A stretch of 59,949 nt of DNA, filler included, from Bipalium vagum (lineage: Eukaryota), in the NCBI GenBank assembly GCA_037834085.1. It is 3 parts of 3 records of this genome, joined end to end, with 100 filler letters (N's around TTAATTAATTAA, not from the genome) between each part and the next. Parts side by side here need not be neighbours in the genome. Positions count along the whole stretch, not along the records: positions 43,330 to 59,949 come from JBBMKC010102311.1; 2 more parts are not named here. One strand, written 5' to 3'. Positions 18,190 to 59,949 of the stretch are shown piece after piece. The position numbers were made by a program, and so were the translations under genes. The notes beneath the pieces were generated by a model that was given only the letters and a program-made list of their open reading frames with translations, did not search any database and had not been told where the DNA came from. Position 1 is the first letter of the stretch, and each line of letters starts with the position of its first letter.

Positions 18190-18957
18190 GTAACTTCGAA
18201 CTCAGTACTCGCAGCCTTATACAGCAGTGAAGGATCGGTATTGGAAAGACATCACTTCAACCAGACGATCTGTATTCTCAATACGGAAGGCTGTAACATT
18301 TTCGAGAACCTTACCAGGCAGGTGTGATAAATTGATCTGGAACACAAATCGTATGTTTCGTTCAGGAATATCAAAAAGCGCTCGATCTTATTCGAGACAT
18401 CATTTTGGCCACAGATCTCGCTCATCATTTTCGAGTCATCTCCCACCAACGACAAATGGCAGAGACCGGCTATGACAAGACCAATGTCGAACATCGCAAG
18501 CTGCTTCTGTTTCTACTGATGACCTGTGCCGATTTGAGCGATCAAATCAAATCGTGGGAAAATGCTCGCAACGTTGCCCGACTGATCTATGAGGAATTCT
18601 TTACCCAAGGAGATTTGGAAAAGGCAATCGGCCAGAAGCCGGCCGAACAAATGGACCGAGAACGGGCCTGTATTCCCAGCTTGCAGATTTCGTTCCTCAA
18701 CGGAGTGGCCATTCCGTGTTTCGAGTACGATGAGCGTTTCGTTAATCGATTTCCATCGTCATGACGTTGATTGATATTTCAGGATTTTCACGAAGCTCTA
18801 CTTCCAGTACGGCGACCCAATGTTGAAAAACATGAGAGACAATCGTTCGAAATGGGAAAAACTCAACAATGACATCAAAGACGGCAAAATTACGGCCAAC
18901 ATATTCCAGCTGTTTCAAAAAGACATGTCTCCCTTTCACTCAGCTCCGATCCAGTGA
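18190..18957 (+). CDS. PDE2A: cGMP-stimulated cyclic-nucleotide phosphodiesterase 2, C-terminal catalytic exons (5'-partial): 18190-18321, 18366-18724, 18783-18957
   Basis: [19 protein letters not shown]...[10 protein letters not shown]...[11 protein letters not shown]...[15 protein letters not shown]...[15 protein letters not shown] closely follows the PDE2 family. Introns of 44 and 58 nt are GT-AG and phase-consistent. Stop TGA at 18955-18957. Confidence 0.93.
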
Positions 18958-25200: not shown

Positions 25201-28200
25201 AAATCAATTAAAGACCCATAAAAGTCATCTTCATTATGATCAATACATTTTCTTAAAATATTCGGAATTTTACAGAATTACTTCTCTTGAGATAAGTGAC
25301 TTTTCTGTTTTTGGGAAGCATCAATTTTTCCATAATTCACTTAAACTCAAAGGAAGCGAGCGGTAAAAAGGCAGATTTTTTTCTCCAAGAAATCCAATAA
25401 AATTGCGTTCCAAGGAAAATCTCTAAACAGGAAACCAAAGAAGAAAATTGTTCACTTTTCAATGGAAAATTCGAGCTCGTTGATTGTTTGTTTCCCAAAC
25501 CATTCTTTTCAACAAGACGGGGACAAGAATCCACAAAGACGATTTAATTATGTGAATTTATGATATCGTCTCTCAGTAGAACAAAATTAAATTTTTCCCG
25601 GAAAACAGATCGATTTTATTTTTCAATATCGGACAAATTTAAATTTGGGAAAATTTGATTTATCTTTATTTATATAGAGAATCAATATACAATGAGTCTC
25701 CAGAGTTCTTTCTTTTTTATCAATGAACTAATTAATGAGGAGCCAATTATACTTTGTTCTTAATTATCATTAAATAAAAATACAACAATATCAATAAAAA
25801 TGATAAGAAGAAAATGAATATGGGTATGTGTATGAATATGGGTATGAATATCAGTATGAATATCGGTATGAATATCGGTATGAATATCGGTATGAATATC
25901 GGTATGAATATCGGTATGAATATCGGTATGAATATCAGTATGAATATCGGTATGAATATCGGTATGAATATCGGTATGAATATCGGTATGAATAAGAGAA
26001 ATAGGAGGAAGTAAAAGATAAGCGAAATTGAGAGAAATAAAAAATATTGATTAAATTGAAACAAAAACGATCGTTAAAATGAAAAATTCACTTTAACAGA
26101 AAACTAATTTTATTTGTCGACTGAACTGTTTTGACGTTAATTTTTGTAAAGATATGAAATATACCTCAAACGTAGTGATCGTTCCTAATATTTTAGGCAT
26201 CCTGTTCATTTGTGACAACAGTGTTCCTTTAGAATTTCATGAACTCAGCAGAAAAAAAAGAAATGTACGGATTTTTCTTTTCGCGCTTGTTAAATTCGCA
26301 TTCTCTGTTCAATATGTCAGAAAAATCCAAGGAATGTGGTTTGAGACACGCAGGGAGATTCTTACGGAGATGATCCGTTCGTACTTAGTTTTATCTTGAA
26401 GGAATTTTTCTAAATATATCACAAAATGCATTTCTTCCTGAGATCGCAATCTTGAAATAGGAAGGGGATTTCTTGATCCAATTTGTCAAAATAAATTACC
26501 GTTATGGTCCACTTATATTTATGAAGTAACAGCGTCATAAAAACTTCATTCCTGCACTGATTAGTTCAACCGGGGAGGAGTGCATTCCTCCATGGTGGGG
26601 TGGTTGCATTTGCTCGCTGCATTGTGGTGCGTCGATAAAAATGCCTGATCAGATCACGGTGGGGAATGTTTCAGAGATTAATTGCCTTCGTTATTGTTTT
26701 CAGTACTTGCTGCTTTTCATCAAGGGAAATATTGATTTTCGGGGTTTATTTTTCCTTAATAAACTCCATTCCGTTTACTATAGTATCTCTCCATGAAAAG
26801 TCCATCTTGACTAATCATTGTGGTTTTGTTTCATAATCCCATATCTCAAATTATTTTCCATGATTACAATTAAAGACTGAATTTTTATTTATTTATTTTC
26901 TTAGTGGTCAAGTAATAAAAGTCTTGAAAATAATATTAAATATTTATAATATTTAATATATACAGTAGAAACTCGCTATAACGACTACGGTTATAACGCT
27001 ACGCACGATATAACGACTTTGGAAATAATACCGTAAAAATTTACACTGATTTTTCGGGCGAGGAAGTTGCTTTTGGCGATTATCGTTATAACGAATTCCT
27101 CTTTATATCGACGAAATAGACGACAAAAGTCGTTATAATTTTTTTGAAATGTGTTTAAATTTGATGTTGCATTTACAATTTTTGAAATGTTTCGATTAAA
27201 TTTGAATTCAAATAAAATTCGATAAATTAAATTGCCGTGAAATTTCTTTAAATTTGATGTTGTATCTTTAATTTAATTTTATGTGTATTTTTAGTCAGGT
27301 AAATAACTCATCTAAAGGCATGAGTGATGATAATATGCCTTCAGAATCTAACAAAAAAATAGTATTATTATGCCTGGCTGTTGAAATGGCTGAGAAGTTT
27401 CAATAATTTTTTGCTATCTCGAGCTAATGTTCCTTCCCAAGCTTTACATGGCATTGATAATATGTTGGAGTATCTGCTAACAAGTAGATCTGATCAATTG
27501 GTTCAAAGAACTATTACTGGTTATTTTAAATAAATGTTTACTTGTTTGTTGTTAAATAATTTAAATGCTATGTACAAATTTTATAAACTATGAAGCGAAT
27601 AATTCATATTTTATGTAGTTCGGTTATAAGGACAACATTAATATAACGAGGATTTCGGCTGGTCCCTTGAAAATCGTTATAGTGAGGTAATATTTAAAAT
27701 ATTAATAACATTTAATATATAATGATTCTATTATATTTTATCAAATGTTTCATACTTCATTCTCTTCTTTTAATAGCTTGTAAGTCGTATTACATAACAA
27801 TCTTATAGATATAGGGAGGGTCTTATTAAAAAGACCTTAAAATAAACAAAATGTAATATTAACTCAACTTTACAAATAATAAAATTGAAAGATATTATTT
27901 TGGTTAAAAGTTAATAATCCTTTTCTATATTACTCATCTTTAAAATATTAATAATAAATAATAATAATAATAATAATAAAATCGATTTTCTGATCATTTT
28001 TCTTATTTTATTTTTTTTTGCATTAACTTAAATTGTTGTCACATCGATGATTTTATTTATTACACAAAAAATAGAACATTTCAAACAAATCAAATTTTCC
28101 CACCACAGGATTTTCAATTGTATATTATTTCAAATTTATGAATTTAATTTCATTATTATTATAATTTTTATTATACTACTATACTTATAATTATTTAACT

Positions 28201-41939: not shown

Positions 41940-42260
41940 CAATCCCTCATTATCGGCCACTTTCTGCCATTGGTCAGCAAGCCTCCAAAACTGTTTAAAA
42001 TACCATTCCGGGTTCTTTTAAATCACAACACTGTTGAAATTCTTCTTCAACTTTATTAATTGATTCAAAACGACGGTCATTCAAAAAACACCCGTAGTCA
42101 GATGACACGACGTCTGGGCTGTATGGCGAAATTTCGTTGACGCCATCTAAGTCTTCAGACTTCTGCTTAATCTTCTTAGAAGTTTGTGACTTGACGTTGT
42201 CCAGAAAGAAAATTAAAAAAAAGAGAATTCGTTCTCCGTTCTCTTTTACAATTAAAAGTA
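41940..42260 (-). mobile_element. 3' fragment of a mariner transposase
   Basis: LDNVKSQ...ISPYSPDVVSSDY...LNDRRFESINKVEE and WQKVADNEG. Confidence 0.75.
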
Positions 42261-43136
42261 CAAGCTGAACTGGGACCAAACAACCGATAATATTGCAAAC
42301 GTACCAGATCTCTTTGACCAGATCGCGATGCAGAGATCAACCAAAAGTCCAGACATGCCATGAATAATATTTATCCCATTTCTGGTGAATTGATGATAAT
42401 TGCCTTTGAGATCTGGTCCAGCCCGTAAATGTCACATTTCATTCCCAGATGAATTTGCCGCTTCCCACCGGCTAAACGGACAGCGCTGTTCGACAGCGGT
42501 GGTTTTAAAGATCGGTAATTAAGCGTTACATGGCAATGGTCCATTGGATCCCCAAACGATGACAATCAAATTAATAATGCACTTCAAAGGCGCAAGAAGC
42601 CCCTGATAATGGACTCAGCAGAAACTTTGATGTATTTGTCAAAATTTCCAGCTTCAACACAATAATAAATGCGCGACCGTTTCCACAGAGAAAAATCAAG
42701 TTATTAAAACTATTTTTACGCGCCATGCGAAAAGTTGAAAATGAAATAATGATGCTTGAAAGAGAACATTGAGAAACATTTGAACTATAAAAATGGACGG
42801 GTAGAGTACTTTTAATAATAATTTACCGTAAATGACGCGGTAAAATTAAAATATAATAATATTTCTTGTACTTTATTTTATATTTTTCACTTTTAATTAA
42901 CTTTTGATGAAAACTAAAAATAACATAAAAATTATTAATTAAAAGCCCATTATTAAATAAATAAAACCAATTCAATTTCGTTGCTTATTAATTGGTTAAT
43001 AATTATCTTTAATCTGTTCTATCAGAAAAAAACTTTTATTTAATTCTTTTTATTAATTATTTGTATTATTATTACCATTTTTAGTACTATGGTCATTGAA
43101 AGCTTATAATAATAATAATTTGAAAAAGATCGAGAA

Positions 43137-43329: not shown

Positions 43330-43392
<63 letters not shown>
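43330..43392. repeat. (AAT)n microsatellite at the contig start
   Basis: About 21 perfect AAT units. Confidence 0.95.
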
Positions 43393-43531
43393 TTAAATGT
43401 TAATAAAAATAATGTAAGAAAATTAAAAGGATAATAAATAATATATTTAAAAATTGACTAAAATATATATTAATAATAATAAAAGAATTATTTTTGAAAT
43501 GATCAATTAAAACAAGTAAAAAAAATCATAC

Positions 43532-44009
43532 CAGTTTCCTGGTGGTATTCGTTTATGGAAGAAATGATGACGGATGCGTGTTGTTCCGGTTCTTTGGCGT
43601 ATTCCATGAACACGACGAGCAGTTTCAGAGCCAATTTCACGACAAGCCGAAACTGGAAAATAAGAAGAGATCAAACAACAGAATGAAGACAACCATTCTC
43701 TTTCCAGTCGAAATCGTTACAGTCATACCTTGCCCTGTAACAGACTGTAGAGCCACTTGAGCGTCTCCGAATCCTCCAGGACCCCATTCATTCCATCAAC
43801 GTAAAGCATCAACTGGCCCAGGGCTGAAATAGGTATAATTGTCGGTAGTATGTCATTGGGCCACAGATATTATACAACAGATATTATACAACAGACCCCT
43901 CACCTCGCAAAATATAGTTCTGGTGGTTCTGGTCGCTCTTGAGCCCAATCTGTCGCAGGCAGTGTAGCCCATTTCGGGCCACGAATTCCTGGACCAGATC
44001 CTTATCATC
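43532..44009 (-). CDS. FHOD3: FHOD-family formin, FH3/armadillo-region exons (partial): 44009-43904, 43823-43729, 43652-43532
   Basis: [85 protein letters not shown] matches FHOD1/FHOD3. GT-AG and phase-consistent. Invertebrates typically have one FHOD, so the paralogue number is nominal. Confidence 0.92.
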
Positions 44010-45744
44010 CTGAAAGGTGCAAAAGAAGAGTTTTATCAAGAAAAGTTATTATCATCCATTTTAAACCAATCGAAATCATCAAAATCAATATAATTATTTT
44101 ATTGGCTAACACTCCGAAATGGTTAGAGACCGGTGAGAAATAGGAACATGAAGAAAAAGGTTCTTAATTGTTCATTACAGCTTTGGAGAAGATTAAAAAG
44201 TAGTTTCTAGTCAAGACCGATAATCCTCTGAATCTCTGAACAACGGCAATACTTTTCCAGCCGACAATTCTCGAACTTCTTTGTATTTGTTCGCCGATAC
44301 ATGACCCTTGCTTCTGGTATTAAGGTTTAACCAATTGAATTCAGTGATACATCCTCAACATAATATTCTCTGTCACTGATTGGACCATCTGAGACAATCA
44401 TTGAACGATATCTTTGAAATCGAAGAAAACTGCTTCTTTGGATCTTGATCCGAGTTTCTTTAAGGATCATATCTTTTGATCTTTGGAAAAACGAAAAAAT
44501 GATGATGAGCATCTGAAACGCCTGCAAATTTCCCGTTTCCTTTAATTTTCAGTCCTTGAGTTTTCCATTGGTTTTCGATTCATTTTCAGATATTAAATAT
44601 TTTCTTTCAATCACAGGTCGTCCCCCAAGCGAGAATTTCCTTGAATATTCTCTTCTTTTGACAATTCTGCTGTAATACTTAAACAAATTCTCGCGACAAC
44701 AGAGTGTGTTTACAATAAACAGTTTTAATCTCCTGCTATGAACCTTTATCGATCTCAATACAAAATTTGGTACTTATCCTGTTCCATCGAATGAAACAAC
44801 AAGAAATAAATGTCATTAGAAATGTTGCAAGGAACGAACACTTGAAATGTTCAATGATGATATCCAGATAGTGCGCACACATAATGAAATTACTTATTAG
44901 AGATGCAATCCCATTGGTTGATATTTAATAACAGGTACTATTGCCGAGTTGGTGTCTGTTTTTGAAAGGAGAGGAAATTTCAAAGTAACAACAATAGAAA
45001 GAAAATGTTAATGTTGCTACGACTCAAAGATGGAAGTGACGAGATAATTTGAGCCAAGTCTAAAATATTTAAAAATGAAAAGTGGGAGGAAACAGCCAAA
45101 AATGATGAGGAAAGAAAACAGACGAGAAACAGTGGTCTTGGAATTTGCCGAAGAGGTGAAAGCCTTTAAAATGTGAAAGATTTCCGTTTCCTATATTTTA
45201 CACGTAAAAATTGAAAAATATTTGATCTATTAAATATCACGGTATGTGTGCCATCAGATTTAATTGATTTTTAATCATGCCGTCAGGTTTAATTGATCAT
45301 AAGTTTTAAATAATCATGCCGTCATATTTAATAGATCCAAAATATTTTTCCTCCAATGACTTGAAATCGAATTTTCGCAGCGCAGTTTGATTTGCAAAAT
45401 TACAGAGATAATAATAAATCAATGTTCAGGTAAAAAGCGAAAAATAAATCAATGTTACCTATTCTTTACCTTTTTGGCAGACTTTCGGAACTTAGGATAC
45501 CAAAAGTGGAGATAAATCCAAATTGTCGACTAAAACAATACGTAATATTCATTTGACTTTGACCTTAAAAGTTTTTAATGACTGTGGGGGACGGAGATGT
45601 TCGTCATTATCAATAGTAAATTGACGCTGACCAGTTCTTATTGATGGAACTGGCATAAAGCCTACTATAACGATTAATATAACCATACAAAAATGTTGAT
45701 TATTTCTTAAGAACATTACAAAACGATGTGGATGTCACCAATTA

Positions 45745-46994
45745 TTAGGTTGTAAAGTTCTAAATCCAACTTATTATAAACTAATTTTTGAGACCATATT
45801 TCTCAACAATAAATAAAAAAAATTATAATTACTCCTATTTGTGTAATGTTAGTAACATTTTGTTTTACTGAATAGTTTGATTTAATAATTTTGCGACATT
45901 TTAAATAATTAGATAAAATTAATTTTAGATGAATACTGAAGAAATTTATATCAAGCATTGTTTGATATATGAATTTAGAAAGGGATCAACCAGCTTAAAT
46001 GCATTTAAAAACATATCAACAACATATCCTGAATGTAATCTGTCACTAGATAAATGTCAAAGATGGTTTAGAAGATTTAAAGGCGGAAATTTTGATATTT
46101 CCGAAAGAAGAGGAGAAAGTTCATCAAATTTGGATAACAATGTTCTTCTATCTCTTATCGAGGGAGATCCTAAGTGTTCAACGCGTCATTTGGGAGATCA
46201 CCTTCAGGTCTCCCACTCTACAATTGCCACTCAACTTCATAAATTAGGCAAAGTCCATAGGCAAGGGTTATGGATTCCTCATTGCTTACGTGAAAACAAC
46301 AAAAAGCGCAGATTGTAGACTTGTTCTTCTCTTCTCCAAAGATTCAATAACGATAATTTTTTAAAAAGAATTGTAACAGGAGATGAGAAGTGGGTGTGCT
46401 ACGTCTACATGAAAAAAAAGGAATGGCTTACGCCTGACCAGAGGCCGATACCCACTGTCAAACCAGACCTTCATCCTCGCCGAATTATGATGTCTGTTTA
46501 ATGGGATTATCGTAGAATAATATATTACGATCTTTTACCACGTAACATAACTATCACAGGACAGGTTTATTGAGACCTATTAGGAAGACTTGAGGAGAAA
46601 TTAAAAAAATCCCGACTAGGATTGATAAACAGAAAGAATGTCATCATTCATCATTCAGATCCCATATTTCAAAAATCATAAAATAAAAATTAAAGGCATT
46701 AGAATGGGAAGTTCTTCCTCATCCGGTGTACTCACCTCATATCGCGCCTTCAGATTATCATCTGTTCAGTTCTCTTCAAAATTATCTGAATGTAAAAGAA
46801 TTTTCTAAAGAGGTCGATATCAAAAACGCCTTGGACAATTTCTTTATGTCTAAGTCCACCAGTTTTTATGAGGAAGAATCATGAATTTTCCTATAAGGTG
46901 GCAAAAGATCATAGATAACAATGGAAATTATCTATGTAAAAATTCATTTTTTTAGATAAATTGTATTAGTTGGATTTTGAACTTTACAACCCAA
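45745..46994 (+). mobile_element. Full-length defective mariner element (1250 bp) with TIRs and TA target duplication
   Basis: TA|ttaggttgtaaagttctaaatccaact ... agttggattttgaactttacaacccaa|TA. Transposase 45929-46939 has WIPHCL, IVTGDEKW and YSPHIAPSDYHLF, with stops and frameshifts. Confidence 0.96.
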
Positions 46995-48599
46995 TACAAT
47001 ATGATGTAAAATTCTAAATTTTTTTAAAAAAATTGAAGACCCAAGTGCACATTTTGAAAAAATGTATCCAAATTTAGAAAATAAATTTATTTATTAAGAT
47101 GAAAAATTTGAATCTGATAGATTTTCTAATCCAATTATTGATCAATTAGAAAAACTAAAAATTGAAAATTTTATGAATGAAAAACAAGTTTTAGAAGATT
47201 AATAAATAACACATTATAAAAAATTAAAATTTAAGTACACTAAAATAGATTCTCATTTAAAATTAGGAAGTAATTGTATAACAGGAATTGTTGGAGTTGA
47301 AACAGCAGTAATGACAGGAATTTCAACTTTAAGAGTTTGATTAATATTTTATATTCCTATTGGTACTGCAATTTTTGGAGCTGTATTTATTTCTGAAACA
47401 ATTTCAAAAAATATTACTTTAAAACGAAAAAGACTTTATAGAGAAAATTTTGAGTCTATAGAAAATTCAATTAATACATTTTATATTTTTCAACTTAAAG
47501 CTACAGAAAAATAAAACTTTAACTAATGGAGAAATTAAACAAGCAAAAAAATAATTCAAGAATGTAGAGAAAATATTAAAATAAAAATGGAAATGTTATT
47601 GAAAACGTTAAAAATGAAACTAAGAAGTTGAAAATAGAATTGAAAAAAGAGTATCTAAAAAAAGTTAAAAGTTTATAAAAATTAATTCTTTTTTAAAAAA
47701 TGAGTGCTTTATATAATGGTAAAATTTTTGAATTAAATAAAATTTTATATTTATAAAAAATTTTCCCAATTTTAAAAAATATTGAAATTTAATCTCTTCA
47801 AGATATTTATGATTTTTTGGAAATTGAATATTATAAATTTCCTTGAGAATAATTATTTTAATTTTTTATTTTAAAAACATATTATGGTGCTTCTACTTTT
47901 TTCAAAAAAATCGAAATGGATGCAAATCAAAATTCAATCGATGTTAAAAAAAGAATAGAAAAATTTTAAAAATTTCAAGAAGTAAAAAAGAAATTTGAAA
48001 CTAATCAATTAAATCAAGGGAAAGAAGAAAGAGGACATAAACAAGATTTTAAAATTTTTCATAAACCTGCTACTGGTACAGTTATTAAATCTAAACAAGA
48101 AATAAAAATTTTACAAAAGGAAAAAGAACAAACAGACAATGATAAAGTAGATAAAAATACTTTTGTTATAATAGAGGAAATTGGAGAACAAAAAAGGATC
48201 GAAGCTAAAATTAAGGATGAAACAACTGATTATCTTTTCAATAAAAAGATTGAACTTCCTCCTAAATATGAAGATATTAATTTTGAAAAGTATTTTCGTA
48301 TTAATCAAGAATTACCATTAACAATAAAACCATCAAGTGAAAAAAATATTTTAACAATAAATAAAGTTTCTTTTGAGATATTTAAAATTAATAATGAAAT
48401 TAATTTTACAAAACAAAATGAATCAATGTCAGGACGACTATCAGAAGGTTTAAAATCATTAATTGAAGGTGAAAATTATAGTAAAATTTTTTATAATAAC
48501 TGGACAAGAGATTATAGTTAAAAAAATTTGAGTAATTATGTATATCTAACAAACTATGTTAAAGGAGTAATGAACTTAAATTATGTTAAAAATATTAGA

Positions 48600-48795
48600 A
48601 ACCGTTCCATTTCCTAAAGAAAATTCTTTAGCTACCATTTTAGGATTTGAAACTAAAAAAACTTATATAGAAGGAATTCATGAATCTAAACCAGGTAATA
48701 TTTCAAATATAAATAGAATTATGATTGATTGTAATATTGTTGAAGGAGCATTTTTCAACGGTGTAAGAACTAACATAATTTTTGATTTTCCTTCA
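48600..48795 (+). pseudogene. Polinton-type minor capsid (penton) protein fragment
   Basis: SLATILGF...HESKPGNISNINRIMIDCNIVEGAFFNGVRTNIIFDFP resembles the LGF...CNIV.GSY.NG....I..F motif of Polinton minor capsid proteins, from memory. Confidence 0.65.
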
Positions 48796-49395
48796 ATAAT
48801 AAAAATTGATGATTACTCCAGGAATCCAGCGAAAATTTTAGATTTTATGGGAGAATATAATGTTTAAATGAATGAAAATAATGCTTCTGTAGGAAGCAAA
48901 ATTCTAAAACTGCAAATATATATAAAAGGGGCAGCAAGAGACATAAATTTCAAATTAATGGATGATCTAACTACACCAGCTACATTCAATGATTTAAGAA
49001 AGTTAATGGCAGAACAAATAGTAGATTCAATTACAAATAAAGCCATGAGGCAAAGATTTTATGAAAGAAAACAGAAACCAGGAGAAAAATTAGAGAAGTA
49101 CACCTACCAACTAATGCTGCTGGCGGATTATGCCTTTAGGGTAAGAAATACATGGAACCGATCAATGTTGGCGGTGGAAAGGATCAATGGTGGTAGCAGT
49201 ACGTCCATCAATAAGAAATGCATTAAAAACCTTTTCAGATCAGGATTTAGGAAAATTAACGGCTATATCAAAAAATATAGAAGCCAACATGAGTATTGGA
49301 TCTTTAGTACATACATCGGAAAATGTACAAACTTTTTTTTACATTCCATAAAGAAGGATATTTGAGTCCAAACTGTCCACAAAGAAAGGAAAAAA
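48796..49395 (+). pseudogene. Retrotransposon-like Gag fragment with a decayed CCHC knuckle
   Basis: KILKLQIYIKGAARD...FNDLRK...FYERKQKPGEKLEKYTYQLMLLADYAF is MHR-like (R.Q..GE....Y...L..LA). After frameshifts, FFTFHKEGYLSPNCPQRK is an eroded CX2CX4HX4C. Confidence 0.72.
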
Positions 49396-50659
49396 GTATT
49401 TCTTTCGCACCAAGGATTAAACCAGTGATAAAAAATTACACTGGTCTACATCATTTTTATTATGCATTTCTGAATCGTGTTTTCATGCTAATTTCACATA
49501 TTTTAGTCATTTTGCTCCATCACCTAAAGTTTTCATTTAATATGTATATTTTAAATAACTAGCAAAAAAAGAAAGAGAAAACGTAAATAAAGAAAGAACA
49601 CAACAGACATCAAACGAAAGGCAAGGCGCGAATCAAGAGAAAAAAAAATATTGTTTATGCTTTTGAAATAGTAAATTTTGTTATTTTTATTATTGTTAAT
49701 AACTTGTTATATTTCCATAACAAAGTTGGTAGATATAAAATTAATATTAGTAGTATTAAAGTAACACTTAATTTGATAATTATTTTATATAATCCTATCT
49801 GTTAGAAATTACAATTACTTTACAACATGTGGCACCAGTGTAACGAAGTTTGTTATTATAATATTTTCAATAATAATAACCATAATAAAAACTAGCTTGG
49901 AACTAAAAGTTCACAAGAATAGCCTCGATTTTTAGTAAAAATAATAAACCATTTGATATTTGAATTTTTACCGGAGCTTTATTAAAGAAAAATTCTCTCA
50001 TTTTTAGGTTCAGATGTCCTCAATAAAGAAAAAAATGGTTAAAATTCCGTTCTCATACCCCCTTGTTTATATGTTCTAAATTATTTATTATGTATCTATG
50101 CAAGTCTTTAAATTTAAGTATTTTAATTTTAATTTTTAACTAAACTATTTACATAACCTATTTATACGATAATCTCGGTTAAAATTCTGTTAATAATTAA
50201 AAAATCTACGATAAAATCTAAAAAATTTTTAATTCGGACCGATTTCAAAACAGGTGTTCATTAAAGCATTATTATTATTATTGATTCCATTCAGTTCAGA
50301 TAAAAAGACGCTGCTGATATGACATACTAATTAGAATTTAGAAATGTAGAAATGGATGATATTATCGCGTCTCAAGATGAAATACGATGAAGGATCTGGA
50401 AGATGACTTTATTATTGATATTTCACAGTGTATTATGTATCTATAATAATTTTTTTATTTTAAACTGTTAAAAAATTTATGATAAAATCTAAAAATTGTC
50501 TATCTACCGAAATTTGTATGTATAAAAGTTATTCAACAATTATATGAATACATTTATTAAATGCATGTTATACAATGTGTTTCTGTTGATTATCTAAATT
50601 TTTAAACTTAATATTAATTTTTTATTAGTATTAAATTACTTACTAAATGCCCATCAATA

Positions 50660-51500
50660 CAATCTTTATTTGTTTCTTAGTCTTATTTGCATTTTGGGAC
50701 CATTCCACATGCCTTTAATGGTATTTGTATGGACCAGTAACAGGATTTTTATATGTTAATGAATGGTTAAATGTTTCATGTCCATACCCATGTTTGCTAA
50801 GTCATTTATAGGCTTTCCGCATGTCAGTATAAATGATAGATACTGGTCTGACATGTTTTGTGATTACGTCCTATAAAGTATTCGAGGATCGGTCTGGTAT
50901 CTTTGTTAAAAATATCTTTTTCCCCTTGTTTTTCAATACCACCGAGTACCCATGCCCCTTCAACGTAATGTCCTCGATGATATTTTCTTTTCCCCATTTT
51001 TGTCTCATCTATTTCTACTATTATCCTTTCACCCTAATAATAGTATCTTCGAAATCCAATGAGTTGCTTATTATTGTTCCAAAACAATTTTTGAAAGTGG
51101 GAAACAGTTTTTGGACTTGTTTTCGTGTAATCCTTGACGGATACTGTTGGCATTTTACTTAACCAGTAATATGCAATTAACAATAATTTGGAGCATTGAA
51201 TAAAATGCCCTTCAAAAAAAGAATCCTTTCTGATTGGTACTGTCTTCTTGCATATTTTGATTCCACACCTGAATCTTTTATTCCTTATTTCTAGATTCAT
51301 GGAATTCTGCATTGTGGGCAAATTCTTGCAATTTCTAATATATTCTTTTCGAATAAAAATTCGATGCATTTATCTTCATTTAATAATATTTCTTGAATTT
51401 TGCGAAAATCCGGAAGATTTAAACACAGCTCTACATATTTCACATCTTTTAAGATCTTAACAGAACTACTACTTTTAAGGATCATAATATATATCATTTT
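50660..51500 (-). mobile_element. Merlin (IS1595/ISXO2-like) transposase pseudogene
   Basis: Minus strand: ICPQC zinc ribbon; IRKDSFFEG; IIVEIDETKMGKRKYHRGHYVEGAWVLGGIEK; PDRSSNTL; YTDMRKAY; HETFNHS...NPVTG. Frameshifted. Possible TIR starting GGTGCAACCGCAAC at about 51616. Confidence 0.9.
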
Positions 51501-51889
51501 ATGCTTTCACAGATTTCTCCAATTTCTTTTTCTTTATAGAAATAATATCGATACTAATAGTTTAGTAATAGATAGTAATAGATAATATTATTTCATAAAA
51601 TTGTTGCGGTTGCACCTAAACCATTCTTTATTTAAATAATTATTAATATTATAATATTTATATTTATAATATAGAATTTCTGTATTATATAAATTCTTAC
51701 TTTTTATATAATAAAACTTATAATATTTAATTATAATAAAACTTTAATTAATCTAAAAAAATGATCAATAGGAAATCTAAAAAAGTTTTTGGCAATGAAC
51801 TTTAAAGGAAATAGTAGAAAAATTATAAAAATTCTTAGGATTTAATCTAAAAATTTGGAATTAAATTTTGGCAAAATAAGAAAAAATTA

Positions 51890-52230
51890 CGGAAAACCCT
51901 CATTTTCCAAATCAGATTCAATTACAATAAATAGAAACATGGTGTTAAAATATTTTTCAAAACATTTTAAAAATATGTTACTAATGTAGAAATGATTCAT
52001 AAGATGAACGATATTGAAAATCCAACAGCAAGAGAAAAAACTGAAAGAGCAATGATAAAATTAATAATGAAAAGAAATATTAATTGAGAACCTAGAATTC
52101 AATGAACTACTAAAATTATTGAAAATGAAAAACTATTTAAAAACTCAAAAATTAAACCTCCTGAAAATGAAACAATTACCAATCGATCTTCATAAACAAT
52201 TTAGAAAACAGAAAAATATTTCTTAAAACT
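51890..52230 (+). pseudogene. PLA2-like C-terminus followed by a retroviral-type integrase N-terminus (Polinton arrangement)
   Basis: EMIHKMNDIENPTAREKTERAMIKLIMKR, then KQLPIDLHKQFRKQK..YFLK (compare QLA.ELHKP.RK). Confidence 0.55.
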
Positions 52231-53324
52231 TAGTTTGGCTAATCCAGTGAAGTTAAAATTAAATTTGATGAAAATATAAATCTTATAAAGTACTAAAAGA
52301 ACCAGATTAAAATTGGTTCGACAGTTCTCTTTAAAATGATTTTTAAATTTTAAAAATTAAAAATAATATTATATATTATTATTTAATATAAAAAAAATAT
52401 AACAGATTTATTAAATAAAATTACTGTAAATAGAAAAATAATTCTTTCTTATTTAATATTCAAAATCAACCAAAATCATTTGAAGAAAAAAAAACATTAT
52501 CTAAAATAGAAAAAATTGAAAAAGACATTTACAATATAACACTTAAGATGAACAAAAAGATTTAAAAGTAATAGAAATGAAACTTGAATTAAAACATGAG
52601 AAGTTTAACAACGAACTTTTTTTTTGAATCACTCAAAAATGGCAAATTAATTTTAAAATTCAAATATAACAGATTTTATATTGCAATAGCTATAGAAAAA
52701 AATAACATTTTAAAAGACGGTATCACAAAAATACCAAAAGAATATGAAGATGTTTTGAAATTCAAAAAACATACGAAGATAAAAAAAAATTTTTGTAGTT
52801 TATTATTATAAAATGAAGTATGAAAAAGTAAACCTTTTGTTTTTTGGTATTCCTTTTGGTAATCTTTAAAAAGAAGTAGTATATATTCTGAACTTGGAAA
52901 TAAATTTTACCAATTTCGAATATTTTGAAGAGTAAAAATTATTTATGAAAAATTAATTTATAATAATATTAATTACAAACAAAGATTATACATTTTATTT
53001 CAAGTTTCACCCTCCATCAAGTAAAAGGAATTTTTTCATTTAAATTCTTGCTATTATTTTAGGAGTTGTATTACACTTTGAATTTTCGAGTGATTCGAAA
53101 TTTGTTTCGTTGACAGTGTATGTGTAAACCTAGGTTTTAGAAGAAAGTGTCATTAATCTATGATTATGTTTCCTAAGTGAAAAGGTAATCTTGATTTGAA
53201 AAATATCTTATACTATGATATTTTATGTACCAAATGCAAATCAGAGTTACATGTTATCTCAAATTTACTGATAATATTTTCAAAGATGTCATTGAAGTTT
53301 TGTTTCTATGGACCTGTTGCCAAA

Positions 53325-54112
53325 CTATTGTGGTGAACACCATATTTTTTGCTAAATTTTAACCTTTTTTGATATAGAAAGAATTTTATCAACATTTTGT
53401 TGATATTCATTTTTGACAATGTTATAAAATTGGAAACATATCTTTGAACATTAAATTCAAAATATATTTAGTCAAAAGAAGTTAATAACAAGCATGAGTC
53501 TTAAAAATGTACAAGACATTTTATATTTATCTGTTTTCAATAAATTAACAGTTTTTGAAAGAGCAAAAATGTAAAAAAATAGTTTTTAATATATGAAAAT
53601 TAAAATACTAAAATTATTTATATTAATTGCTATTAAAATAGTATTTTTTTTAAAAACACTTTACGTGCGTATTGTAAAATTTTTGGAATGAATACAAAAA
53701 AGGATATCTATCCAGGAAAATTTTTATATATTAAAACATAGCTTCTTTTTCATATGTTTCAAAATCATTGGTAAGTAAATTGAAGGTAAAAATTCGAGTC
53801 GATAAGTGTGGACGACATAGCATCACTACTGCTCGTACTGATCGTAAGCTAAGAGATATATGCATAGAAAACAGGTTCCAAAGTGTATCCAGACTTATTA
53901 TCTTGGTGAATAATGAAGAAATAAACATTTCAAAGAGAACTGTTCAAATGAGATTGACTGAGGCAGATCTGTTTAGTTAAACGAAGGTCCATAGGGTATT
54001 ATTTCAGGTTTTTAATTATTTGTTATAATAATTTGTTAAAGTTACTTAGTTTATACTAATTCCATTAATTTTGTATGTTTTATAGGGGGTGAACAAACTT
54101 TTACAAGGACTG
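53325..54112 (+). mobile_element. Internally deleted Tc1-like element
   Basis: ORF 53768 KCGRHSITTARTDRKLRDICIENRF...ISKRTVQMRLTE is a Tc1 HTH. Right TIR ggggtgaacaaacttttacaaggactg|TA. The left boundary is uncertain. Confidence 0.8.
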
Positions 54113-57100
54113 TATACTAAGTTTATCAATTTTTTTTATTAAATTTATTTATTAGGTATCCTTTAAAGGAACAGATATGAGAAACCTAAAGAATATTGCT
54201 TCCCATTTATACTACTGAGGATATATTTTAGTCAATAAACATAATCTATCCGTTATTTCCTATGGCCACTAAGGTTATAATTATGGCAGAAAATCTTTGA
54301 TATGGTAGATCGAGGAGCAAGTGTTACTGTCAAAGATAAAACAAACGAGGTTTCGATAAAATTATTTACCTAAAACTGAAAACATTTGCTAATTAAATAA
54401 TTTAGGTCTTTTTCGTTTTCCTATTTGTTTAATGATGTTGATCATCACCCGAATGCCAGAGATTTGGAACTATTTGATTGATGAATGCTTTATTTTATAA
54501 TGAAAATATTTTTCTTTTAAAATTTAGTATAATAGTTTAAAGATTACTATAGTTTCTTAATGTGCTTTGAGTTCAGCTTCGTTTGTTTACAAAAAATTCA
54601 AATGTTTCCACAATTAAGGGTAAAATATGATAAAATATTTAAAAATATAAAACTATAAGTATATAAATAAATAAATTTATTTGTTTAATGAGCACCGATC
54701 GAAAGGGAAGACAAAATAGAACTGCATAATGGAAATAAAGATTCAAACCCAATGTTATTTGTAAAATTTTTAATTAAATCATTGATTTCAGTAAGGACTA
54801 AACTTCATAAAATATCATCACGAATTAATCAAAGCAGAAGGTAAAGGAAATTTGGCTAATTTCCTCAAATAATTTCTAGATAGAAACCTTCGGTCAGATG
54901 TTACTAAACTAGGAAATTTGTGGCTTCTATGCAAAATATTTTTGAAAGATCGAAAAAATTACTCCATAGAATATGAAAGAAACCCTGTCATAAAGTATTT
55001 TTGTTAAGGAATAATAAGGCACTGTAGTATCTGTTCCTCCGTTCAATTGTATATTGATCAAGAGTAATTGGAAATCAATTTATATTGTTTTCATTTTAGC
55101 TATAATTTGTGAATTATCGATTTATTTTTATTGTTTATAATTATTGATTATTTTTGTAAGTTTAAATTTTGTTGGTTTTTTACCTTTTGAACCAATTGTT
55201 TGACATTGGTTAAGAGTTATAAATTGATCCAGTTGATCAGGATAACGGAAATTGATTTGACATTTTGCAAACTATTGCTTTATTGTGAAGACTCAAGAAA
55301 GAAAATGATTAATCAAAAACAGTTATCCCTGTATTAAATGATTAAAAATAATATTGTCTTAATACTGTGATTTTGCCCCTTTTGTTATGTTTATTTTAGA
55401 ACTTTTTTAAAGAAAATTCCCCAAAAAAGAAATATAAATTTTAATTAAATTAAATAATTCAGAGAAAATTAATAAATGCAAAATTGTTATTATTAATAAT
55501 TTTTAATATTTTTTCTGATAAATGTTAAAGTAAGGTTATGTTACTAAAAATATATTGTTTGGAAAAATAGTTACTAAAAATAGAAAATTGTAAATAATTT
55601 ATCATAATCTATTTTTAGGACATAAATAGTTTTTATAATTAGAATTATTAAAATAAAACAAAGGAAATACATTGATTTATCAGCATAACACACAAAAAAT
55701 TAGAAATCATGTCGAACAAATTATGTTAATGAATACTGAAACAGTAATCTTTTATCTGAATTTATTTATTTATTTCGTCAGAATTATTAATCTCTGAACA
55801 GTTGTATTTTAATTTATTACTACTGTTATTATTGCACCAGTAAAAATTTTTATATTAAAAACTTAATTTTGGCATTGAATAGTTGTGGTCATTTCAGATC
55901 TTCAATGATTTTATTCATTCTCAATGAAGTTAGGAATGCTAACCTTAATTCAATTCAATATCAATCTATCTATTTATCCAATTTCTATCAGTAGATAAAT
56001 TATGCAATATATATATAAAATAATAATGTCAACTGTTTTATGAAATTTAAAGGTTTGTTTTATCAGGCTTTTCAAATGATTTTTTATTGTGCAATATAGT
56101 TTTTTGGCAAGATCTTGTATATCCTATTTTCGTTCAGTATTGGAGTTATTATTGATTATTATAATAAAATTTTTCATCTATCGAAAAATTCGTTTTTATT
56201 CTTATTTGATCGATTTTCTTTATGTAAGAATTTTGAAAGGATACGTTCCCAAATTTTATTAAATAAGATAATCTTACAGTTAACAAAAAATAGAAAATGA
56301 ACCTGCCATTATTTTTACTATCTTACTTATTACTAGCGTATATAAAGTGAAAAAAACGTATACTGCCTTATTTTAAGTTTCTAATGCGTTTTCCGACTTT
56401 TTTTGTTTCAATCACCACAAAGAATTGACAGAACTCTGTGTTAGGATTATATTTAAAAAGATCATAAGCTTGATTGTGGGTTATTAGTGCATTTTTTATC
56501 TGAGAGGGAATCTGTACAAAAGTGATATTTTCTCTATATAACTGGATTTCAGACAATACATAGAATAACTTTAATAAAAAATCAAAAGTAACCTGAAAGA
56601 ACAACATGAAGTCCTGAAAAAGCACACGAGATCCTTAAATTGCAGAACGAGACTTTCAAATGGCAGAATGATTCCCTCAAATATTGTAAAACTGAACTGT
56701 AAATTTCAAGTAAATTGTTTAGTGTTCAAATGTAAAGACATGTTCGATACAAGGTTTCCAAATAAATCTTTATCAAAGTATCGCAGAAAAAGAAAATTTT
56801 CTTAAATGTGTTACTATAGTTAATTGGTTAAAACTGGTTGATTCTTCATTTTTATCTTTTTTTACAGTTCCACCTAACTACTAAGTTGAAACTTAGTTCT
56901 TATCATAATGAATTTTCACTTATCTTCCAAATGAGATTATTCTTAACTTTAATTGAAATATATATAATTACTTTTTTGTTGCAATAATGTGTAGATTTAA
57001 AGTTCATCGTTTGACAGACAGCGGTTAAATTGAAATACAACTTGAGCCTCAATGAAACCTCATCAACAGTTAAAAACTTTGAGAAGCTAAATACATATTT

Positions 57101-58159
57101 ATAATTGCCAATAAATGTATACTTAATAATGTATTTTAACCGTTATGATTATCATTAATGATCATTTTTATTATTAGCTTAAAGATCATTATTATTATAC
57201 TTTATGTTGACAAAAATAAAAAGTCGCAGTGTTTCCTCTATAACTCTTAGTTTTAAACTCATAAATATTTTCTTTTATTGAAAATTTTTTTTGTCGGGTT
57301 CTGCGAAAATTATTATTTTTATTGTCGAACACGGACAAATTTTGCCAATAATTTCGTTTTTCTCAAGTTAAAAACACTATTTCTAAAATGAAAATTTTAA
57401 AAATTAATTATTATGAATATATGTAGACTTCGAAAAAACTAATGATTTTCATGATTTAATGATTGGCTATATGAACTTTGATTCCCTTTTGTTAACTCGA
57501 TGTTTGATTATATGTCTAACCTCTTAAAAGTTTTTTAAAATAATCATACAAATTATTAAGAATTATAATTATTATTATTAGTATTAAGACAAAAAATAGA
57601 AATATTTTAAAATAGAAACCTCAAGTTTCTAAAAATAGAGATTACGATTAAAAAAACTATTACAAAAATATTAAAGTAGAAGAATATTGCGTTATGCAAA
57701 AAATTGAAACAACCTATTGCCAAAAATGAGTAATATTTTTAATATAAATTTAATGAAATGAAAAAAGAGAGCACAAACAAACAACCAGACAAAGAGAAAA
57801 CATCAACAGATCAAGTTTCAAATCTAAGGTATTTCAAGAATTCACAAATTCGTATATCAATTCAGCAAAATAACTATGAATTGAACGATCAAACACAAAA
57901 CAGACTCACGTAGGGTAATCGATTTACCGGCATTTTTATTTTTTTGATAACCGGATATTCGGTAAATGATAAATAAATAAAACTCACTTTGATTTAAAAG
58001 ATCATTGATGCATATTGGAAACAATCTACAGCATTATTATTTTAATACTTTGTAAATAAAAAATTTGAGTAAATTTAATTTCTTAAGGAAAAGTTTATAT
58101 TTTATGAAAACAATAACTATTTATTCAGATAAATAATTGTCTCTCATGTCTGGTACTCG

Positions 58160-58380
58160 TTGAAAATTTACTCTCAGTAAGCACTAGTCATCTAGCGTTT
58201 CGTCGTTTAATCTCGAAAGAATTTTTGTACAAAATGTTTCCGCTACAGAAAAGGCACGTTCCGATTCAACACTTGTAGGCTGAATTGTACTAAAAAAAAT
58301 TAAAAGCAAGTTCTAAATAATTTCTTCTGATGTTAACGGCTTCTAAATAATTCATTTCCTTTATTATTATTATCATAATT
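58160..58380 (-). mobile_element. hAT transposase C-terminal (dimerisation domain) fragment
   Basis: KEMNYLE...RRNYLELAF.., then TIQPTSVESERAFSVAETFCTKILSRLNDETLD. Confidence 0.85.
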
Positions 58381-58489
58381 ATATTACCGTTTTTACTTCT
58401 ACTCACTTCCACTAATGGTTGTTTTTTCCAGTGTTCAATTGTAAAATTTAGTTTTTCTTTCACTGTTAGCATAGTTTGATGTGAATATA

Positions 58490-58520
58490 CAGTACGCTAA
58501 TTAAATTTGTTCACCCCTTA
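58490..58520 (+). mobile_element. Tc1-type left TIR related to the one at 54112
   Basis: TA|CAGTACGCTAATTAAATTTGTTCACCCC versus CAGTCCTTGTAAAAGTTTGTTCACCCC. Confidence 0.6.
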
Positions 58521-58731
58521 ATTAATTTTATATAATTGTATACTTGAAATTAGAACAGTTTAAATGAATTAATATAGATTTCATATTGATGCTTTTATTT
58601 AAATTTCAAATTAATGGTTTTTTATTAAAAATGATGATTTAATTTAATGGAAATTGTAGCACTTAGTTGTGCGACCAAAACCTGGAGTGAAGTTATTTTA
58701 TTCCGAAAGATCCTCGGGCTATGCAAAAGTA

Positions 58732-59339
58732 TATATCCCCCGTTTTTTACATAATATATAACAAACATTATTTACAATTTACAAGAATTTATTTTTGTCT
58801 AATTAAAGTCACTAAATTCCAGAACCTGTCAGTTCTGTTTACTTTATAATAATTATTGATTGTATAATACATTATCAGTTACATATAATTATTAAAAAAT
58901 TAATTATATTATATTAAAATTATAATAAAGAATAATATATCTAATTAATTTTATAGTGAAATTTAATAACTTTTATAAATAGTTAAGTAGACTTAAGATT
59001 TTAGGTAAATTTTAATTAAAAAAATCTAAATTAATTTAAAAATTTAACTTATAAAAATTAGTTAATTTAATTTTAAATTTTTTAGGTAATTTTATTGTCT
59101 CTAACTTTTAAAAAATTGATTTTCAGGTACTTTTATGAACATTATTAATGTGTAACACTAAATCTATCAGTCAGAAGGGAGTGGAAAGTAAACATAACTG
59201 ACAGGTTCTGGAATTTAGTGACTTTAATTAGACAAAAATACATTCTTTAACTGTCTTAATTTTCTTGTAAATTGTAAAATATATATGCTGCATTAAAACA
59301 TGTTTGTTATATATTATGTAATAAAAAACGGGGGATATA
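58732..59339. mobile_element. MITE/foldback element with long (about 110-150 bp) terminal inverted repeats
   Basis: tatatcccccgtttt...tatttttgtctaattaaagtcactaaattccagaacctgtcagtt is mirrored at 59186-59339. The interior is AT-rich and non-coding. Confidence 0.9.
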
Positions 59340-59876
59340 CTACAGTGTTACCTATAAATCACAAACAAGTATATTTAAGTCTGTTCAACCTGAAATTCTT
59401 AAAAAGTCAATAAAAGCCTTTATCATACTGATATTTATATCAGTACTAAAGGCTTCTGAACTTTAGATAATTAAAAATCTTTAAAGAATTATTCTTAAGA
59501 GGATTTTTATTATAGCATTTTTTAATTAATTCCCTTCTGTCTTAGCGGGTCGGACTTTGTTAATAAATTTCTGAATGATAACTGATGCTGTCTAAGATGT
59601 CTTTATGTTACAATTGGTGGTTTAAGATTTCTCTTTGGTTACCAGTAATAAATAAAACTTCTGATTCGTCATTTTCAACCATTCAAAGGCTAACACAGGA
59701 AAGCAAATAAATCAGTAGAAAAATAAATTTTTGTTGATTGAAAAAAAGTTACTGCCTGGCACAGCTGTTTGGTTACTAAAAGAGCAGACCAATTACTTCA
59801 GTAAATACATATTAAATATATTTGTGAAAGTCGATTGATTTTATTGTAATTATTCGCATTTTATAAATTGATTACT

Positions 59877-59949
59877 ATTAGGTTGTCCCATATGAAATGT
59901 CCGATTACAAAACGAATTTTTTAAACTATTATAATTCATATAATATTTA
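59877..59949 (+). mobile_element. Left end of a mariner element, cut by the window edge
   Basis: TA|ttaggttgtcccatatgaaatgtccg, a TTAGGTTG-type mariner TIR. Confidence 0.65.

Follow-up and report, generated by a model that had tools for sequence, protein, structure and literature searches.

Maverick-Polintons and adintoviruses are treated as synonyms within the Polintoviricetes in a recent account (10.64898/2026.06.19.733378), according to which a phospholipase gene is common in group 2 and in the virion modules of the Alpha class. The single jelly-roll minor capsid gene of these elements was identified as the penton by Krupovic et al. (PMC4028283), and SLATT genes appear on published adintovirus maps (PMC8502044). 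Degraded loci account for 96% of 3,511 vertebrate Mavericks (PMC8097293), and human chromosome 7 carries an adintovirus relic (PMC8502044). Two other papers (PMC11161782, PMC3671162) add, in their accessible text, nothing on the genes treated here. In this work we analyzed a stretch of 59,949 nt from Bipalium vagum (assembly GCA_037834085.1), referred to below as the window, of which positions 43,330-59,949 come from record JBBMKC010102311.1. It holds a broken run of virus-like genes that is likely the inactive remnant of one Polinton/Maverick (adintovirus), inserted in an intron of an animal FHOD gene and decayed without selection.

The evidence base consisted of the window and of relatives from public collections, among them the loci L001 to L008 and L016 and the proteins P0004 to P0007 and P0010 to P0012; the relevant genes of L006, L007 and L008 are in records filed as prokaryotic, and L016 is from IMG/VR. 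An earlier sequence-only reading had drawn five peptides, (i) to (v), from a run of intronless frames, and all five were found on the plus strand where it had placed them: the frame from 47020 holds (i) and the one from 47700 holds (ii), while (iii) falls within 48580-48867, (iv) near 52004 and (v) near 52167. Stop counts were compared with the best-frame means in 2,000 base shuffles, the regions having been picked post hoc. Piece (i) has 4 stops in 164 codons against a shuffle mean of 13.5, and the main part of piece (ii) has 2 in 228 against 20.2; in both cases 0 of the 2,000 shuffles were as low. Because these counts are far below those of the shuffles, both frames are regarded as former genes. 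The frames are broken by stops as had been proposed, but the run is not continuous, being interrupted by about 2.8 kb of unrelated transposon debris (48796 to about 51570). As listed in Table 1, three matches lie in order on one strand, with stops and truncations in the genes and foreign transposon pieces between them.

Table 1. Features of the relic and its surroundings in the Bipalium vagum window
Feature	Position	Strand	Remarks
Piece (i), broken former membrane-protein gene	47020..47640	+	long hydrophobic stretch; left end abuts mariner
Small broken gene, homolog of unnamed 55-residue P0011	47697..47843	+	33/48 identical; 2 stops in 49 codons
Piece (ii), unnamed Polinton gene usually before the penton	47916..48599	+	residues 1-192 of the 270-residue P0010; 3' part absent
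Piece (iii), middle fragment of minor capsid protein (penton)	48604..48795	+	P0004 residues 138-201; both ends absent
Piece (iv), C-terminal helices of PLA2-like (parvovirus-type phospholipase A2) domain	51977..52084	+	conserved front part absent
Piece (v), likely first residues of RVE integrase	52164..52214	+	frame differs from (iv); no catalytic core follows
A-rich broken frames, possibly more of the element	52230..52810	+	GC 0.16-0.20; plus-strand A excess; composition as in the relic
Retrotransposon gag-like fragment, later insertion	48796..49365	+	PF03732, E 1.7e-4; 22.2 bits (under the curated threshold, 24.1)
Broken ISXO2-like (IS1595 family) DNA transposon, later insertion	50139..51566	-	PF12762, E 1.8e-10, at about 50745-50930
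Flanking mariner, not part of the Polinton	45743..46996	+	32-nt inverted ends 45743-45774/46965-46996, 91%; PF17906, E 1.1e-14
Three internal exons of host FHOD1/3-type formin	43506..44009	-	PF24959, E 1.6e-11 and 3.8e-6

The claim of a minor capsid gene was firmly borne out. Piece (iii) is identical at 49 of 64 residues to P0004, an unnamed protein of 258 amino acids (E 1.8e-22), which was the sole match among 29 candidates. Five further relatives were recruited through P0004, and a profile built from 10 pentons matches the window at E 7e-21. The number of identical residues per 64 falls from 49 in P0004 to 45 in P0005, 36 in P0006 and 33 in P0007, and in a tree with 10 unnamed relatives these four group with the window piece with support of 91/96. 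P0004 to P0007, like P0010 (see below), are unnamed single-member clusters (ENA, Logan) whose genes are unbroken. The fold was predicted for the whole of P0004, not for the 64-residue piece. The resulting model, made from the alignment of relatives (predicted local distance difference test, pLDDT, 77.8; predicted template-modelling score, pTM, 0.55), has as its best solved match the mavirus penton (PDB 6g41 and 6g42; E 1.7e-10, template-modelling score, TM, 0.39, 12% identity), followed by adenovirus pentons and a Sputnik chain; among predicted structures it matches minor capsid proteins of polinton-like viruses (PLVs), giant viruses, adintoviruses and MELD viruses. The single jelly-roll minor capsid gene, a Polinton feature, is present as a fragment only, and the first 137 and last 57 residues of the penton are found nowhere in the window. 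Viral contigs gave no match to P0004, P0010, the alignment of pentons or the major capsid protein of L001; the scan with the L001 PLA2-integrase yielded no locus, and the penton alignment had no match in genome contigs.

The frame from 47700, searched by phmmer against 1.84 billion proteins with X at the stops, gave three matches, P0010, P0011 and P0012. Peptide (ii) is present, but its frame comprises two genes and not one. The first and smaller is the homolog of P0011 (E 2.6e-10), linked to Polintons by position only. The second aligns with P0010 at 33% over 228 columns (E 3.1e-16) and also matches P0012, and a profile of this family matches the window at E 8e-19. P0010 in turn matches a gene of L001 lying before the penton (E 9e-9), with a C-terminal motif common to L002, L003 and L004. 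This pre-penton gene, for which Pfam gave no family and which we presume to be the one labelled DUF8207, directly precedes the penton in five of the seven penton-matching loci (L001, L002, L004, L006 and L007, but not L003 and L016); in L006 and L007 it was recognised by eye from the C-terminal motif. P0004 and P0010, which came from separate searches, are each an ENA protein on a 3,496-base contig, and the two probably share one contig on which both genes are unbroken. In the window, the P0010 alignment stops five bases before the penton match, and this one junction thereby lacks about 78 codons of the pre-penton gene and 137 codons of the penton; the missing gene end was not located elsewhere in the window. 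A single deletion may have fused the two genes, cutting the first after residue 192 of 270 and resuming within the penton at residue 138 of 258.

The proposed PLA2-like gene is supported as well. Piece (iv) aligns, from 51980 to 52081, with residues 114-147 of the L001 protein at 44% over 34 amino acids, and its score of 83 was equalled by none of 300 shuffles (maximum 69) and none of 39 other window tiles (maximum 57); a profile of seven relatives matches it at E 0.006. Pfam gives no direct match for the piece, and PF08398 is carried by the PLA2 query domains of the relatives. The parvovirus-type PLA2 domain gene, a trait of group 2 or the Alpha module, is present as a tail fragment only. Piece (v) is collinear with residues 158-174 of L001 (17 residues), with a score of 44 that 2 of 394 tiles reached. 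By its position it is likely the start of the integrase, to which its sequence points weakly. Of the integrase claim, a possible start piece in the expected place has weak support, and a core was not recovered.

Comparison with the relatives places these pieces in context. In L001 (6.7 kb), PLA2-like and rve domains share one frame of 441 residues, beside genes for a double jelly-roll capsid protein, pX, an A32 ATPase and the penton as well as the pre-penton gene. The elements L006 and L007 measure 14.6-15.3 kb and have inverted ends (L006:174-15451, L007:273-14906); their pPolB is 47% identical to that of L005. Their genes run on one strand in the order SLATT-like, pX, protease, ATPase, pre-penton gene, penton, small gene, major capsid, PLA2 and integrase, and the window order of pre-penton gene, penton, PLA2 tail and integrase start is the same. 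This agreement supports the assignment but does not decide it, because L001 and L016 are arranged differently. All loci with enough genes to tell (L001, L003, L006, L007 and L016) are Polintons with an RVE integrase.

The sequence-only reading had held pPolB, ATPase, protease and major capsid genes to be deleted, and profiles of the relatives detect none of them in the window. Major capsid profiles from two and from four relatives gave no match there better than E 0.85; the A32-like packaging ATPase profile had its best match, far from the relic, at E 0.17; an adenain-type protease was not found in the window, and the pX profile had no match in the relic. Nothing in the window matched a replication profile of four large open reading frames (three with the pPolB-associated Endonuclease_7, one helicase-like) or, by tblastn, the L005 pPolB. 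Elsewhere in the 60 kb, the profiles gave no further Polinton-like match. The inverted pairs in the window are mariner ends, AT-rich chance pairs and one far 63-nt pair. Because pPolB, capsid, ATPase, protease and ends are undetected, the relic is filed as a remnant derived from the Polintoviricetes and not as an intact member. The ancestral element would have carried pPolB, major capsid, ATPase and protease genes and integrated by its RVE integrase; its protein-primed replication, capsid, packaging ATPase and integrase are attributed to it on the basis of the relatives and of published work rather than of the window. Neutral decay by deletion, point change and nested insertion would then have removed the integrase core and both ends, and the gag-like fragment and the ISXO2-type transposon would now stand in place of the penton end, the major capsid gene and the front of PLA2. 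The relic can make no virion, cannot move itself and has no function now.

Several results weigh against the assignment to one Polinton. The window yielded no Polinton-type terminal repeats or 6-bp duplication. An integrase profile has no match in the relic, where there is no core, and piece (v) is not significant alone: with four other integrase starts as queries its score was reached by 7, 99, 116 and 166 of 394 tiles, and four of the five queries give it no clear lead. Piece (i) has no significant homolog among 96 candidates, phages or PHROGs, nor one above chance among PDB sequences, and the A-rich frames beyond piece (v) have no Pfam, PHROGs or Atlas match. Gene order varies among the relatives, the PLA2-integrase lying upstream of the penton in L001 and on the other strand in L016, so that the window is collinear with L006 and L007 only. 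Finally, the label Nucleocytoviricota is commoner than Preplasmiviricota among the Atlas neighbours of the penton.

Two separate Polinton fragments, a penton block and a PLA2/integrase block, might have come to lie side by side in a transposon-rich intron. The blocks are about 3.2 kb apart, mostly occupied by other transposons, and share no ends, and their closest relatives belong to different elements, P0004 for the penton and L001 for PLA2. However, both blocks (47001-48800 and 51801-52800) have a guanine-plus-cytosine (GC) content of 0.15-0.26 and an excess of A on the plus strand, which the pieces inserted between them do not have; with the same strand, the L006/L007 order and no other Polinton-like piece in 60 kb, chance neighbours are improbable, and we consider this explanation unlikely. 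Passive capture of the left block from another jelly-roll virus, such as a PLV without an RVE integrase or a giant virus, would account for the fold matches to minor capsids of virophages, PLVs and giant viruses and for the mostly Nucleocytoviricota Atlas clusters. The sequence relatives that come with genomic context (L001, L003, L006, L007 and L016) are nevertheless Polintons with an RVE integrase and share the pre-penton gene, which makes such an origin very unlikely.

That one piece was domesticated as a host gene or exon is hardly credible. The 64 codons of the penton piece are free of stops, and a run of 183 open codons spans 47970-48521. Given the stop density of the neighbours, however, 64 open codons in a row would be expected; all longer frames contain stops or are truncated by a deletion or insertion, and the pieces are antisense to FHOD. 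We consider the remnant of a single decayed Polinton to be the most likely explanation of the locus.

Piece (i), at the left end, was confirmed to have a long hydrophobic stretch: Kyte-Doolittle means over 19 residues exceed 1.0 in windows that start at residues 82-112, with a peak of 2.2. Its alignments with the SLATT-like proteins of L006 and L007 extend over some 110 residues; 14 and 15 of 1,000 shuffles, respectively, score as high, and 7 and 2 of 564 natural frames reach the score. These two queries are 75% identical to each other, and the pairwise p of about 0.015 is uncorrected for many comparisons. The L006 protein matches Pfam SLATT_fungal at E 1.2e-5; piece (i) itself has no Pfam SLATT match and an hhalign probability of 0.4%, and its single-sequence model was unusable (pLDDT 37). 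An identity as GasderminX found no support. Piece (i) is a former two-helix membrane gene that, as a weak lead, may be of SLATT-like type.

The junction between PLA2 and integrase was compared among the relatives. In L001:148-1473 the two domains lie in a single frame. Integrase starts were located by motif in 12 cases, 8 of which have an in-frame upstream methionine (including L001, where the frame covers PLA2); the remaining four, L006, L007, L008 and L016, have none. In the first three of these, the integrase frame lies at -1 and overlaps the last part of the PLA2 frame (L006:9137-9317, L007:8792-8972, L008:2088-2244), with no ATG before the conserved ELHK motif, and the junction has an in-register A_AAA_AAC followed, after 5 bases, by a 12-bp hairpin. 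The downstream 70 bases fold at -18.0 (L006), -18.0 (L007) and -24.2 kcal/mol (L008), and 0, 2 and 1 of 200 base shuffles, respectively, are as stable. The L006 and L007 junctions are identical at 416 of 420 positions and were counted once; the L008 junction, from an independent element, is 76% identical and yet retains all 12 pairs, among which one change is two-sided, hence compensatory, and two are one-sided. A pair-shuffle control is uninformative with two distinct sequences (260/500). Judged from its sequence, the overlap is a candidate programmed -1 ribosomal frameshift.

A scan for the frameshift pattern returned three loci, L015, L016 and L017. The L015 and L017 matches are due to chance, lying in non-integrase DNA. 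L016 was rejected as a programmed shift, the -1 frame having a stop after the heptamer and there being no hairpin (74-87 of 200 shuffles as stable); at L016:2382-3961, which belongs to a Polinton, PLA2 continues into the integrase through a change of frame at the junction itself, which supports the link between the two genes but not a programmed shift. The window has only an out-of-register heptamer, and its own junction is too decayed to tell a fusion from a shift. Searches of the accessible, mainly open-access literature on frameshifts or fusions in Polintons, Mavericks and adintoviruses gave no description of this PLA2-integrase junction, and in the available part of Buck et al. (PMC11071296) -1 shifts are predicted only at adintovirus penton ends and hexon-protease junctions. 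We tentatively propose, as a possibility somewhat short of even, that the relic comes from an unnamed Polinton lineage making a PLA2-like entry enzyme and integrase as one protein, either in a single frame (as in L001) or by a -1 frameshift (as in L006, L007 and L008). If so, a DNA virus would have a gag-pol-like means of loading its capsid with integrase in a fixed amount, and the existence of unbroken close relatives, P0004 and P0010, would imply a lineage still active in animals similar to the host. A fusion or frameshift tying the integrase to an enzyme that is likely capsid-borne would point to packaging of the integrase in the virion.

With regard to the source of these relatives, L006 and L007 are whole Polintons in contigs filed as bacterial metagenome-assembled genomes, and L008 to L013 carry Polinton-like integrase genes in prokaryote records; they are likely eukaryotic DNA binned by mistake. 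In L010:1-2649, a long frame resembling a helicase (PF13245 AAA_19, E 1.5e-5) immediately precedes an integrase, at the place of pPolB in other elements.

The gag-like fragment begins where the penton match stops, and GC there rises to 0.39. The ends of the ISXO2-like transposon, of the kind called Merlin in eukaryotes, are approximate and marked only by a short imperfect inverted pair. As to the host gene, the exon at 43887-44009 matches human FHOD1 from residue 135-148 of solved chains and is preceded by a pyrimidine tract and a CAG acceptor, and no upstream FHOD exon was found in 44010-59949 (six FHOD motifs; Pfam on 82 frames of at least 36 amino acids). Since an internal exon with an acceptor is followed by no earlier exon up to the window end, the relic is likely in a long intron, antisense to FHOD; its position upstream of this exon fits the upstream intron suggested beforehand.

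Elsewhere in the window, a cyclic-nucleotide phosphodiesterase exon lies between assembly gaps at 18336-18764 (+; PF00233, E 5.7e-33). Further DNA-transposon debris comprises DDE_3 at 828-1409 (-; E 7.8e-5), a mariner-like end recognised by eye at 41995-42336 (-), HTH_Tnp_Tc3_2 at 53735-53980 (+; E 2.4e-4) and a weak hAT dimerisation match at 58187-58312 (-; E 0.02). Nested inverted repeats (63 nt, 97%; 32 nt, 91%) around some 340 bases at 58743-59325 are likely a small non-autonomous transposon, and 25800-26000 is a tandem array of about 14 copies of a 12-nt unit.

Taken as a fossil, the relic is ordinary; it marks an unnamed Polinton lineage and ties it to an animal host. The junction finding outweighs this, as it bears on how Polintons deliver their integrase. 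With Polintons/Mavericks, or adintoviruses, the locus shares the penton, the PLA2-like gene, the intronless frames and the insertion in an animal genome, and perhaps the start of an RVE integrase. The mavirus penton and the Polinton protein PX (PMC4028283) are near counterparts as well; the mavirus penton is the best structural match of the P0004 model, but at 12% identity and a TM of 0.39. In the adintoviruses of Starrett et al. (PMC8502044), as far as that account is available, PLA2 is joined to pX (PLA2X, as in L003), whereas L001 has PLA2 joined to the integrase and a separate pX. The stops, frame changes, insertions and lost ends are like those of the vertebrate Maverick fossils and the human chromosome 7 relic; unlike the vertebrate fossils, the window belongs to a very AT-rich animal genome and shows a PLA2-bearing gene set.

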